From positions 761 to 64,760 of the forward strand of contig JAFRIQ010000036.1 of the NCBI GenBank assembly GCA_017432725.1: a stretch of DNA of 64,000 nucleotides. The letters are read 5' to 3'. A model generated the notes under the pieces. The model saw only the letters and a program-made list of their open reading frames with translations, searched no databases and was not told where the DNA came from. The position numbers and the translations under genes were made by a program. This DNA comes from Bacillota bacterium (lineage in GTDB: Bacteria; Bacillota; Clostridia; Peptostreptococcales; Anaerovoracaceae). This document shows, one piece after another, positions 4,572 through 47,836 of this stretch (position 1 is its first letter; each line of letters opens with the position of its first letter).

Positions 4572-4648
4572 GGCGGTGTAGCTTAGTTGGCTAGAGCGTC
4601 CGGTTCATACCCGGAAGGTCGGCGGTTCGAATCCACCCGCCGCTACCA
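4572..4648 (+). tRNA. tRNA with CAT anticodon (elongator Met, or Ile2 if lysidine-modified)
   Basis: Hand-folded cloverleaf: anticodon arm TCCGG-TTCATAC-CCGGA, T-loop TTCGAAT, encoded CCA. It lacks the initiator features (no three G-C pairs at the base of the anticodon stem). Confidence 0.85.
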
Positions 4649-4674
4649 TTATCTTTGAAGCTGCTTGTTGATGC

Positions 4675-4752
4675 GGTGGGTATAGTCAAGCGGCCTAAGA
4701 CGCCGGGTTGTGGCTCCGGTATTCGTGGGTTCGATTCCCACTACCCACCCCA
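4675..4752 (+). tRNA. tRNA-His (GTG)
   Basis: Acceptor GTGGGTA/TACCCAC with an extra 5' G(-1). Anticodon loop TTGTGGC, T-arm GTGGG-TTCGATT-CCCAC, encoded CCA. Confidence 0.9.
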
Positions 4753-4769
4753 CAATTCAATATTTTTCG

Positions 4770-4844
4770 CAGGGGTATCGCCAAGCGGTAAGGCAACGGA
4801 TTCTGATTCCGTCATGCGAAGGTTCGAATCCTTCTACCCCCGCC
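4770..4844 (+). tRNA. tRNA-Gln (CTG)
   Basis: Anticodon arm ACGGA-TTCTGAT-TCCGT, T-arm GAAGG-TTCGAAT-CCTTC, encoded CCA. The body GGGGTATCGCCAAGCGGTAAGGC is typical of Gln. Confidence 0.88.
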
Positions 4845-4854
4845 ATTTTTTTAA

Positions 4855-4929
4855 GGCGGCATAGCCAAGTGGTAAGGCGCAGGTCTGCAAAACCTTTACT
4901 CCCAGGTTCGAATCCAGGTGCCGCCTCCA
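4855..4929 (+). tRNA. tRNA-Cys (GCA)
   Basis: Acceptor GGCGGCA/TGCCGCC, anticodon loop CTGCAAA, discriminator T, encoded CCA. Confidence 0.88.
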
Positions 4930-25417: not shown

Positions 25418-26377
25418 CTATTCTATTGCGGTATATCCTTCGAGAGGAGTGATTCCGAGCTGTCCGCAGACCTTCTGGTTGAAGAACTTTGTGGGGTTCG
25501 GGTCGAATTCTACCGGCATCTTGCTGACGTCTTCGCCGTCTTTCAAGATCCTTGCGGCCATCTTTCCGGTTGTCACACCGAGGTTGTAGTAATCGATGGA
25601 AAGGGAGGCTACACCGAATGCCGCGCAGGGATCCTTCTCACCGGTGAATACCGGTTTGTTTGCCGGAAGCACTACGTTGGCTATAGCCTCTGCGTTGGAA
25701 GCTGCAACGTTGTCCGTGGGTACGTAGATCACATCTGCGAATTCGCAGGCTTGGGTCGTCACGCTGCCTACGTCGTTGCTGTCTGTGAAAGTGAAGAACT
25801 TGACTTCAAGTCCCAGGGCTGTCAGATGCTTGGATACTTCTTCAGCCTGGAAAACGGAGTTCGCTTCGGCGTTGCAGAAAAGTATCGCTGCTTTCTTTGC
25901 TTCAGGGAACCATTCTGTGATCATCTTTGCCTGTACTTCAAGATCAGCCAGGTCGGAAGTTCCGGAAATGTTGTTTCCGACTGTCCCGTTCCACTCATCG
26001 AGATCAAGTGCCGGTGCATAGTGGGTGATGGAAGTTCCGAGGATGGGGATAGTGTCCGTTGCCGCAGCCGCTGCCTGAAGGGCCGGCGTGGCGTTTGCCA
26101 TGATAAGGTCTACGTTTCTCGATACGAAGTCGTTTACTATGGTAGTGCAGTTTGCAGGTTCACCGGAACCGTCCTGTACGATTATTTCGACCTTGTCTTT
26201 TCCAAGTTCTTCTGTGAGGGCGTCCACGAATCCCTGAGTCGCTTTATCGAGGGCAGGATGCTGGACCAGCTGGCATACGCCTACAGTCCAGGAATCTTTT
26301 TCTTTGGATCCGGCGCCGCATGCGGCCAGGCCGAGGATCATGCATACTGCAAGTATCAGTGCTAATAACTTTTTCAT
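25418..26377 (-). CDS. ABC transporter substrate-binding lipoprotein (PF04392/COG2984-like), paralogue 2 (orphan; no adjacent permease or ATPase)
   Basis: MKKLLALILAVCMILGLAACGAGS is a signal peptide with a lipobox. Long identical blocks are shared with paralogue 1 (KDSWTVGVCQLVQHPALDKAT, NVDLIMANATPALQAAAAATD, ..). Confidence 0.85.
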   Translation of the reverse strand: MKKLLALILAVCMILGLAACGAGSKEKDSWTVGVCQLVQHPALDKATQGFVDALTEELGKDKVEIIVQDGSGEPANCTTIVNDFVSRNVDLIMANATPALQAAAAATDTIPILGTSITHYAPALDLDEWNGTVGNNISGTSDLADLEVQAKMITEWFPEAKKAAILFCNAEANSVFQAEEVSKHLTALGLEVKFFTFTDSNDVGSVTTQACEFADVIYVPTDNVAASNAEAIANVVLPANKPVFTGEKDPCAAFGVASLSIDYYNLGVTTGKMAARILKDGEDVSKMPVEFDPNPTKFFNQKVCGQLGITPLEGYTAIE

Positions 26378-26393
26378 TTTCTCTCTCCTTTTG

Positions 26394-26429
26394 CAAAAAA
26401 AGGACTTCTGCTTTCAAAAACAGAAGTCC
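26394..26429 (-). terminator. Intrinsic terminator inside the 5' leader of SBP paralogue 2 (candidate attenuator B)
   Basis: On the minus strand: GGACTTCTG-(loop)-CAGAAGTCC followed by TTTTTTT, 16 nt upstream of the start codon region (the RBS AAAGGAGAG follows). Confidence 0.65.
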
Positions 26430-26487
26430 ACATTATGAACGAATCTTTGTGTGTTTACGAAAATCTGTTTAAGCTTCTTATCATACT

Positions 26488-26562
26488 TTAAACTCCGCTA
26501 TAGCTTCTGCTATAACGGTAGGAATAAGCATAATAAAGTTTGCTGAGGTTTTCGTTTTTCAT
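26488..26562 (-). CDS. 24-codon Tyr-rich upstream ORF (candidate leader peptide B)
   Basis: It encodes MKNENLSKLYYAYSYRYSRSYSGV* with 6 Tyr in 24 codons. It has the same length and the same stop position relative to the hairpin as uORF A. The ATG lies 9 nt after the putative -10. Confidence 0.5.
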   Translation of the reverse strand: MKNENLSKLYYAYSYRYSRSYSGV

Positions 26563-26571
26563 ATTACGGAT

Positions 26572-26599
26572 ATATTACACCATATTTCGTGCTTGTCAA
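26572..26599 (-). promoter_or_regulatory. Putative promoter B
   Basis: On the minus strand: TTGACA (26599-26594), 16-nt spacer, TAATAT (26577-26572). Confidence 0.5.
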
Positions 26600-26623
26600 C
26601 AAAAAAAACAATATTTTTTTGTA

Positions 26624-27097
26624 TTACGCATCCAAAAGATCTTTTTTGTCCATCCAAAGCTGCAGGGAATCCACTGCAAGAGATATCTTATCGAGCTGCT
26701 CTTTGATATATCCGAAATCTCTTTCTTCATCTTCGGATACTTCGCCGTCGGCGGATATCTCTATGAGCCTTTCCTTGTCCTTTTCGAGGCTGTTGAGTGT
26801 CGCCAGAACTTCAAGAACTATCTGAGTGAGCTCTTTTGCCTGTACCTGAGGCACGTATTTCTTGCCTATGGGGCATTCGTTGGAGCAGTAATAGTTGCAA
26901 AGATCGGGCGTCTTGTAACATTCGGCCATAGCCATTATCTCATCGGGATAGGGAACGGTCTTGTCGCTCTCTATTTTTTCTATCCTTGTTTCGGATACTA
27001 TCCCCATGGCTTCGCTGGCCTTTTCCCTGGTATATCCGGCATTTTCTCTGTACTGCTGGTATATATTCTTGTTTTCTTTAACAGATTTTCTTCCCAT
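26624..27097 (-). CDS. XRE-family HTH protein with a Cys-rich segment
   Basis: IYQQYRENAGYTREKASEAMGIVSETRIEKIE is an XRE-like HTH, followed by CNYYCSNECPIG. I chose the internal ATG preceded by CAGGAGGA. Confidence 0.72.
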   Translation of the reverse strand: MGRKSVKENKNIYQQYRENAGYTREKASEAMGIVSETRIEKIESDKTVPYPDEIMAMAECYKTPDLCNYYCSNECPIGKKYVPQVQAKELTQIVLEVLATLNSLEKDKERLIEISADGEVSEDEERDFGYIKEQLDKISLAVDSLQLWMDKKDLLDA

Positions 27098-27224
27098 GTG
27101 GATATCCTCCTGATGTCTGTATAGAAGCATTGTACTACAAATCGGAAGATAATCAAGACAATGGAAAAGGATGGCCTATCTGATGTATAATAGATAAGAT
27201 AAATGTACAAAGGGAGTTATTGGT

Positions 27225-47760: not shown

Positions 47761-47836
47761 TGGTGGAGCATAGGGGGATCGAACCCCTGGCCTCAAGATT
47801 GCGAACCTTGCGCTCTCCCAGCTGAGCTAATGCCCC
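47761..47836 (-). tRNA. tRNA-Ala (CGC)
   Basis: The reverse complement is GGGGCATTAGCTCAGCTGGGAGAGCGCAAGGTTCGCAATCTTGAGGCCAGGGGTTCGATCCCCCTATGCTCCACCA. It has the G3:U70 Ala identity pair, anticodon loop TTCGCAA and an encoded CCA. Confidence 0.92.

Follow-up and report, generated by a model that had tools for sequence, protein, structure and literature searches.

What governs expression of a substrate-binding protein gene whose upstream region consists of a promoter, a short reading frame crowded with tyrosine codons and an intrinsic terminator? The question arises from a 64,000-nt stretch of a Bacillota genome (contig JAFRIQ010000036.1), henceforth termed the window, on whose minus strand all leader coordinates given here lie. 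The gene (ATG at 26377, 319 aa) encodes a lipoprotein substrate-binding protein of family PF04392 (E = 1.2e-52) and, together with its ribosome-binding site (RBS) AAAGGAGAG at 26391-26383, occupies positions 25418-26391 of that strand. A preliminary description of the window had read the region upstream, here termed leader B, as a tyrosine-specific leader-peptide attenuator. This reading fits the tyrosine-only reading frames of orthologous leaders, the pocket signature that the binding protein shares with the tyrosine-binding protein CD0873, and a tyrosine-type T-box that precedes one ortholog. We consider it quite probable that leader B is a ribosome-mediated transcription attenuator that senses the charging of tRNA-Tyr.

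A tyrosine-rich reading frame between promoter and terminator

The elements of leader B follow each other on the minus strand in the order promoter, upstream open reading frame (uORF), terminator and RBS. The sigma-70-type promoter (26572-26599; scan score 10/12) comprises TTGACA at 26599-26594, a 16-nt spacer and TAATAT at 26577-26572. Nine nucleotides past the -10 box, an ATG at 26562 opens a uORF of 24 codons (26488-26562, with the TAA stop at 26490-26488) that would encode the leader peptide MKNENLSKLYYAYSYRYSRSYSGV. Six of its codons specify Tyr (positions 10, 11, 13, 15, 17 and 21, at 26535-26530, 26526-26524, 26520-26518, 26514-26512 and 26502-26500) and none Phe. Sequence inspection bore out the preliminary description on the promoter, the 9-nt gap, the Tyr-rich, Phe-free frame of 24 codons and the terminator directly ahead of the RBS.

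Taken by itself, one such sequence is only suggestive, because the chance estimates are mixed; its significance rests on conservation. It could be that nothing is regulated here, the terminator being leaky or a leftover (for example, of the helix-turn-helix (HTH) gene upstream) and the uORF a chance frame or an independent small protein. Tyr-rich small ORFs do arise by chance in sequence of this composition, and promoter-like hexamers are not enriched regionally (17 found, 14.3 expected). We nevertheless regard this account as very unlikely: the promoter-uORF-terminator layout is kept in 17 leaders and two genomic contexts, the promoter sits between the HTH gene and the terminator, a paralogous leader in the same window (leader A) shows the same design behind a different upstream gene, and comparable uORFs are enriched across the protein family. 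Further leader-like uORFs were sought in the window and none was convincing, the matches falling inside coding regions.

The 17 leaders, designated type I, comprise the window and loci L001 and L081-L096, collected through exact-protein look-ups and collection scans; a metagenome scan for close relatives yielded three loci, and the look-ups, one of which found nothing, supplied the other orthologs. All 17 retain the start, frame and stop of the uORF, and a Shine-Dalgarno sequence ahead of the uORF is absent from every one, the window included. In 16 of them, TTGACA, a 16-nt spacer and TAnnAT are followed by an ATG 9-11 nt further on, usually with TAAT just before it; in the seventeenth (L090) the contig end cuts within the -35 box, so that the spacing is unreadable. 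A leader of a different type (L074) displays the same promoter-to-ATG geometry. Transcription generally starts about 7 nt after a -10 box, and leader B would consequently have a 5' untranslated region of 0-4 nt. The promoter geometry thus suggests that the uORF is leaderless or nearly so.

Six distinct orthologous B leaders, all behind the same HTH gene, keep the frame and carry 6-8 Tyr codons with no Phe. The peptides read MKNANLNNLYYAYSYRYGYGYSGY in L082, …GYGYSGL in L084/L086, MKNVNLAQVYYAYSYRYSRSYSGLEHE in L085, MKNAVLNNLYYAYSYRYGYSYNGC in L087 and MKNANLNKYYYAYSYRYGRGYSGY in L096, and the more distant L001 has MKNVHCHNSYYAYSYRYCYSGSFRA; B-type uORFs vary at codons 4-9, 18-20 and 24 and in the position of the stop codon. 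Leader A (23760-23954; promoter 23954-23927, uORF 23915-23841, terminator 23789-23760) is homologous to leader B, its aromatic codons standing at matching positions that are Phe or Tyr in A and Tyr only in B. The leader A uORF, MKNVSFNNFYFAFSYRYGFGFSGR, contains 6 Phe and 3 Tyr codons, and its candidate antiterminator strand is GAAAAUAG. Eight A-type leaders have 4-6 Phe and 3-5 Tyr at the same codon positions; downstream of them come a binding-protein gene and then, wherever the contig extends far enough, a permease gene. Locus L087 (~492-656) is chimeric, with a B-type, Tyr-only uORF behind the HTH gene and an A-type antiterminator and terminator (GAAAAUGG…, AACGGUCCUGUUUUCGCAGGACCGUU), which suggests that uORF and terminator modules can recombine and interchange.

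The strongest argument that the uORF of the window is a real leader peptide is the recurrence of such frames throughout the wider binding-protein family. We surveyed 80 loci of Clostridia from species-representative genomes, picked solely on binding-protein similarity with the leaders disregarded, 76 of which had enough upstream sequence. With at least 6 aromatic residues per 10-residue window as criterion, 21 of the 76 loci carry a Tyr/Phe-rich uORF, compared with 2 in the reverse complement and 0.35 in dinucleotide shuffles, an enrichment of at least about 10-fold. The peptides are mutually unrelated (e.g., MASKRHFSYYYYRYYSSVS, MDRYYYYSYFYFYLK…, MKNRRFYAAYYFYYYFTVS…, MTNSCRSFAYFYYFYFFAER and MKKTSNFVANAYYYYSYYIK), with an overall composition of 13% Tyr, 11% Phe and 0.5% Trp. 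Many of these uORFs have a GGAGG ribosome-binding site and are followed by a terminator 25-80 nt ahead of the binding-protein gene. At seven loci (L007, L010, L034, L045, L058, L059 and L074), the sequence at or after the uORF stop forms a strong helix with the 5' arm of the terminator (-14.8 to -20.4 kcal/mol, z -2.1 to -3.7), which is the textbook arrangement.

An ortholog from an Erysipelotrichaceae metagenome-assembled genome (MAG; L066) has no uORF. Directly upstream of its binding-protein gene lies a T-box (2740-2969) with the specifier loop GAA-UAC-A, which corresponds to Tyr. T-box scans covered 58 homologous loci; L066 is the only one with a T-box in this position, and the other matches belong to other genes.

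These comparisons also bear on the level at which tyrosine might be sensed. All B-type leaders have the peptide core Y-Y-A-Y-S-Y-R-Y in common, and this YYAYSYRY stretch could, as TnaC does with tryptophan, arrest the ribosome when tyrosine is present as the free amino acid or on some other cue, the transporter then being induced by abundance instead of starvation. Substrate induction would make sense in the hosts, which probably live by fermenting amino acids (an Anaerovoracaceae MAG is the closest genome). Yet the A-type paralog has Phe in place of Tyr at the same positions, the peptides of the wider family are unrelated beyond their richness in Tyr and Phe, as in codon sensing, and the Tyr T-box of the ortholog responds to uncharged tRNA, i.e., to starvation. 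We therefore give an arrest peptide very little credence and retain attenuation by codon sensing as the preferred explanation.

The binding protein itself offers a separate indication of the ligand. Among solved structures it comes closest to those of C. difficile CD0873 (6HNI, E = 1.4e-40), SP1069 (3LFT) and VC_1101 (3LKV), proteins that bind tyrosine, tryptophan and phenylalanine, respectively (PMC6816091). Glu-263 of CD0873 hydrogen-bonds the tyrosine hydroxyl and is Ala in SP1069 and VC_1101, and Tyr-279, which is Gln in the tryptophan binder, excludes tryptophan (PMC6816091). In alignments to 6HNI and 3LFT, Glu247 and Tyr263 of the window protein, here binding protein B, correspond to these two residues, and the same Glu/Tyr pair occurs in 85 of 85 homologs, both window paralogs (B and A, the latter encoded behind leader A) included. 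CD0873 and the window protein are both lipoproteins with the same tyrosine-selecting pocket residues, the ligand of the latter being a prediction. CD0873 also has a 70%-identical paralog, CD0876, in a neighboring ABC transporter, a paralogous arrangement like that of A and B. Three independent lines, namely codons, pocket and T-box, point to tyrosine as the predicted ligand and signal. The preliminary description had supposed that the two paralogous binding proteins respond to different aromatic amino acids. Different regulation is supported by the Tyr-only and Phe+Tyr uORFs, but a difference in ligand is not shown, since A and B carry the same Glu/Tyr pair and the pocket residues do not separate them.

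Hairpin, terminator and competing pairings

Single-sequence folding and the consensus fold of six leaders both predict a long irregular hairpin, P1-P2-P3 (26457-26555), in leader B. Its 5' strand consists of uORF codons 3-18 (26555-26509), and its 3' strand of codons 20-24, the stop codon and ~30 nt beyond (26504-26457). The apical part, P3 (26495-26518; CCGUUAUAGC-AGAA-GCUAUAGCGG), lies within the uORF and contains 10 bp, one of them G·U, between the arms CCGTTATAGC (26518-26509) and GCTATAGCGG (26504-26495). In the preliminary description this was a perfect 10-bp hairpin. The ten pairs and their position hold, but one is a U·G wobble and P3 is just the tip of the longer conserved hairpin. 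All six leader-B type sequences keep P3; one change affects both sides of the helix and several affect a single side. Leader B as a whole folds at -53.9 kcal/mol, compared with -32.4 kcal/mol for shuffles (z = -5.3; 0/200). The consensus fold of the six leaders contains 29 hairpin pairs, four of which show both-sided changes (e.g., 47/66, GC to UA), and P3, P2, a basal helix and the terminator all reappear in consensus folds computed from six B-type and from seven A-type leaders. By hand reading, P1 is retained as CGUGA:UCACG in L085 and as ACG…:…CGU in others, and L090 has CUGCAA:UUGCAG where the window has UCAA:UUGA.

The intrinsic terminator (26395-26429) has a 12-bp stem, GGACUUCUGUUU/AAAGCAGAAGUCC, followed by U7. 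Its stem arms GGACTTCTG…CAGAAGTCC lie at 26429-26402 (in the transcript, GGACUUCUG…CAGAAGUCC) and the T7 tract at 26401-26395. A terminator scan ranks the stem among the three best in 10 kb, and the consensus folds show it conserved with compensatory changes. CUGUUUU, at the junction of 5' arm and loop, is invariant in 14 of 14 aligned type I leaders, while the remainder of the stem has been replaced several times. Between uORF stop and terminator lies a GATAAGAA box (26482-26475), which had been noted as shared by the two leaders; it is present in A and B, but the leader-B orthologs read GAUAAAAGG and similar.

Another possibility is that the long conserved hairpin itself is an RNA sensor for a protein or small molecule, whose binding in place of a ribosome would decide on terminator formation, with the ORF incidental to a U/A-rich hairpin. 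In the six-leader alignment the stretch of Tyr codons is almost invariant in nucleotides, third codon positions included, which fits constraint at the RNA level. The missing Shine-Dalgarno sequence and a weak antiterminator would suit such a sensor, as would the syntenic XRE-type HTH gene, although the latter encodes a DNA-binding fold. On the other side, start, frame and stop are kept in every type I leader, Phe/Tyr swaps occur at fixed codon positions, and the non-homologous leaders of homologous genes share just a Tyr/Phe uORF and a terminator, many of them with a Shine-Dalgarno sequence. The hairpin is plain and long and has no obvious ligand pocket. No Rfam family matched the leader at gathering scores in a scan of the whole window, nor at E up to 10 in 23600-26700. 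The T-box model RF00230 was likewise absent from the window at gathering score and from 23600-26700 at E up to 10, and the curated Rfam amino-acid leaders (Phe, Trp, His, Leu, Thr and others) went unmatched, the only hits being four chance-level matches to unrelated families. An RNA sensor is in our view improbable, and we return to the attenuator.

Attenuation calls for a strand that competes for the terminator. The preliminary description had proposed an 8-bp antiterminator between AGCAGAAG (26504-26511), at the loop and 3' side of P3, and CUUCUGUU (26426-26419). This pairing exists in the window, where it extends to ~13 bp (-13.7 to -14.0 kcal/mol), but it is lineage-specific, being intact in just three of six leader-B types (window, L085 and L096). 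In L082a, L084a and L091, a Tyr or Phe codon replaces the AGA Arg codon, breaking the three central pairs. Lack of conservation in homologous leaders had been named as a refuting outcome; it counts against this pairing but not against attenuation itself.

A second candidate lies further downstream. The block GCUUAAACAGA (26464-26474) is identical in five leader-B sequences and differs by one base in L091, whereas its flanks vary. Its AAACAGA pairs with UCUGUUU at the junction of terminator 5' arm and loop (26424-26418), and a further helix is possible between its GCUU and the AAGC with which the 3' arm begins (26413-26410). Among the pairings considered it is the sole antiterminator candidate present in all six leader-B types (~-10 kcal/mol). 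With 97% of cells paired, invariant strands and no covariation, the count neither supports nor refutes the helix, and the role of the block as antiterminator strand is unproven. P1 and the GCUUAAACAGA helix would be mutually exclusive, because the AGA of the block also belongs to the 3' strand of P1. In the A-type leaders, the equivalent pairing GAAAAUAG:CUGUUUUC plus UCG:CGG has 100% of cells paired (slid controls, 32-58%) and three one-sided compatible changes, and the strand GAAAAUAG can alternatively pair with uORF codons 7-11, as expected of a classical 'segment 2'. Two further pairings considered as antiterminators, GGAGUUUA:UGGACUUC (-11.8 kcal/mol) and GUUCAU:GUGGAC, are specific to the window and absent from orthologs, and were rejected. 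A pairing of the conserved AUUCGUUCA block with the uORF start was also set aside, as sequence inspection found it not kept in L082, L084 and L096.

The mechanism set out next goes beyond what the sequences show, namely the elements and how far they are conserved, the biased codon use, the association across the family and a pocket of the Tyr type; that the uORF is translated, that ribosomes stall on it, which strand is the antiterminator and in which direction regulation runs, we infer. Transcription would start 0-4 nt before the AUG of the 24-codon uORF, and the uORF with the following 30 nt could fold into the single long hairpin P1-P2-P3, the proposed anti-antiterminator or '1:2' element. 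When charged tRNA-Tyr is plentiful, or when the uORF is not translated, the hairpin would close, in the former case after the ribosome has left the stop codon, and hold GCUUAAACAGA; the terminator (26429-26402 plus U7) could then form and end transcription before the binding-protein gene. When charged tRNA-Tyr is scarce, a ribosome would stall on Tyr codons 10-17 in the 5' half of the hairpin and block it. The freed 3' half could capture the terminator 5' arm and loop before the 3' arm is made, allowing read-through into the binding-protein gene. The terminator-blocking pairing would be the conserved AAACAGA:UCUGUUU, possibly with GCUU:AAGC, and AGCAGAAGCUAUA:UGUGGACUUCUGUU is additionally available in the lineage of the window. 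Leader A would follow the same logic with Phe and Tyr codons and control binding protein A together with permease and ATPase. Since leader A has Phe and Tyr codons and leader B Tyr codons only, Tyr starvation would be predicted to open both units and Phe starvation only A.

Several observations weigh against this mechanism. Small ORFs with at least five Tyr codons number ~2.2 per shuffled window, compared with one observed, and are thus not improbable in A/T-rich sequence. Without a Shine-Dalgarno sequence, translation of the uORF hinges on a leaderless-type start that is inferred solely from promoter geometry. Conservation of the Tyr codons is entangled with conservation of the hairpin that contains them. 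For direct coverage of the P1 5' strand (codons 3-6), the ribosome would have to stall at Tyr10 or Tyr11. As for the antiterminator, half of the orthologs lack the stronger pairing available in the window, and the conserved candidate consists of 7-11 A/U-rich pairs that do not exceed shuffles (z -0.2 to -1.0). The best antiterminator duplex in window-type leaders is likewise not significant relative to shuffles (z -0.2 to -1.5). In equilibrium folding with the footprint of a stalled ribosome masked, the full-length leader still favors the terminator in every state. Because equilibrium folds always keep the terminator, any antiterminator must act kinetically; in folds ending at the terminator loop, with the 3' arm not yet transcribed, the 5' arm is engaged with upstream sequence.

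Relation to known attenuators

Leader-peptide attenuation is textbook knowledge for Trp, Phe, His, Leu, Thr and Ile/Val. With the proteobacterial examples trpL, pheL-pheA, pheST and hisL, leader B shares a cluster of sensed codons in a short ORF followed by an intrinsic terminator. In leaders of the trpL/pheL/hisL type, as proposed here, a hairpin holds the regulatory codons on its 5' side and can pair through its 3' side with the terminator (1:2/2:3/3:4), and leader length is similar at ~165 nt. Leader B departs from the proteobacterial attenuators in its amino acid, tyrosine, in its target, an uptake protein instead of a biosynthetic operon or synthetase, and in its Clostridia host. It further differs in having no Shine-Dalgarno sequence, a start 9 nt past the -10 box, a short candidate antiterminator and no Rfam match. 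Mycobacterial leaderless polycysteine uORFs, which reportedly attenuate operonic gene expression, likewise combine a 5'-end ORF, no Shine-Dalgarno sequence and richness in one amino acid, and the genes downstream belong to the metabolism of that amino acid; phylum and amino acid differ, and the leaderless start of leader B is deduced from geometry. Our literature search found no tyrosine-dedicated leader peptide, no uORF control of this transporter family and no such switch in these gut bacteria.

Johnson et al. 2020 are said to have described 'runaway transcription' in Bacillus subtilis, since when the coupling needed for classical attenuation has reportedly been doubted in Firmicutes. Were Tyr/Phe attenuators a large class in gut and rumen Clostridia, as suggested below, ribosomes of these Firmicutes would have to follow RNA polymerase closely enough for classical attenuation. 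The geometry without a Shine-Dalgarno sequence would make the leader a test case for leaderless translation combined with transcription-translation coupling in Clostridia. For B. subtilis there are documented cases in which ribosome-mediated attenuation is combined with pausing of RNA polymerase (PMC4191407, PMC6851288).

Leader peptides are known in Firmicutes, if uncommon. His leaders occur in the Bacillus cereus group, Peptostreptococcaceae and Erysipelotrichales (PMC2965389, PMC9413887), and a Leu-rich attenuator peptide precedes ilv-leu in Staphylococcus aureus (PMC5794164). Like leader B, these are amino-acid-specific uORF attenuators in a role that T-boxes usually fill, but they concern other amino acids and biosynthetic or synthetase genes, and their sequences are unrelated to leader B. 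The one aromatic leader with Tyr codons that our search turned up is the AroR leader peptide upstream of aroF in Corynebacterium glutamicum, which has Phe-Tyr-Phe codons, acts by ribosome stalling and is reported to respond to Phe and not to Tyr (Neshat et al. 2014, via PMC11802643). AroR has only three regulatory codons and serves a biosynthetic gene in Actinobacteria, whereas the B-type leaders have 6-8 Tyr and no Phe and precede a transporter gene.

T-boxes provide the closest comparison by target. The trpXYZ genes of Streptococcus suis, of the same transporter family, are T-box-controlled (PMC9382623). They and L066 share with leader B the PF04392 gene family ('tryptophan/tyrosine transport system'), the charging of one tRNA as signal, and a terminator/antiterminator output. 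The T-box senses the tRNA directly; leader B would use a uORF instead. A T-box and a leader peptide on homologous genes would represent a sensor swap of the kind noted in PMC2965389.

The attenuation design is familiar; the tyrosine signal, this transporter family and these gut bacteria would be new to it, and leader B stands out by its unusual start and as one of an informative paralogous pair. With somewhat less than even confidence, we suggest that gut and rumen Clostridia contain a large class of previously undescribed Tyr/Phe attenuators, that these are the main regulators of CD0873-type importers, that the uORF in the lineage of the window is leaderless or nearly so, and that the paralogous leaders provide two separately tuned inputs, Tyr-only for the accessory binding protein and Phe+Tyr for the core transporter. 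In gut and rumen Clostridia, where this poorly characterised transporter family abounds, the uORF would mark its members as importers of tyrosine (and phenylalanine); about a quarter of the sampled loci carry such a uORF. In C. difficile, tyrosine uptake feeds p-cresol production and colonisation (PMC6816091). The leader pair, Tyr-only versus Phe+Tyr, amounts to a natural experiment on codon specificity within one structural scaffold.

Genomic setting of the two leaders

Leader B and its gene form a single-gene unit, closed by a terminator with a 13-pair stem (25372-25400, minus strand). Leader A heads an operon of binding protein A, permease and ATPase (21038-23677, minus strand), presumably the translocator that binding protein B uses as well; the two binding proteins are 71% identical. 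A URO-D-like gene with its own promoter-like site (24152-25324, minus strand; PF01208, E = 1.8e-10) separates binding protein B from leader A. No such gene intervenes in L082, L084 and L086, where leader A and a second binding protein come immediately after binding protein B and, in close relatives, the permease comes next; this gives the URO-D-like gene the look of a window-specific insertion. These neighbors also make gene B the accessory binding protein of the adjoining transporter, and the label "orphan" given to it in the preliminary description does not stand.

Directly upstream of leader B lies a gene for an XRE-type HTH protein (168 aa; 26624-27130, minus strand), found in the same position in L082, L084, L085, L086, L087 and L096. 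Between this gene and leader B, an A/T-rich inverted repeat, ACAAAAAAA-N6-TTTTTTTGT (26599-26622, minus strand; 9-nt arms, 100% complementary), abuts and overlaps the -35 box, and comparable A/T-rich inverted repeats occur upstream of the -35 box in leader-B orthologs. The repeat could serve as an operator, and thus as a second, DNA-level control, or else as an UP element or as a weak terminator for the HTH gene. The XRE-type protein may bind it, and whether the repeat belongs to the switch is uncertain.

Repeats of other kinds accompany related promoters. The A-type promoters bear the palindrome CAAATATTTG (23971-23986 in leader A), which in L084 takes the form ACAACAAATA-N10-TATTTGTTGT. In nine of the surveyed loci (L007, L010, L018, L022, L051, L058, L059, L060 and L074), the promoter spacer contains TTTAAAG(C)G, or an inverted repeat resembling CTTTAGCGATTTTAAC lies just upstream. 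In these otherwise unrelated Tyr/Phe leaders, such sequences may be a transcription-factor site common to aromatic amino-acid genes of Oscillospiraceae and relatives. The window also contains tRNA genes unrelated to the leader (4572-4926 and 47764-47836; four clustered on the plus strand and one on the minus strand, by Rfam). Leader A carries one more stable hairpin, GGAUCCCGCG…GCGGGACCC (~23695-23735, minus strand), after its terminator and ahead of the RBS of binding protein A; this hairpin is without counterpart in leader B and recurs in similar form in L083, L084b and L089.

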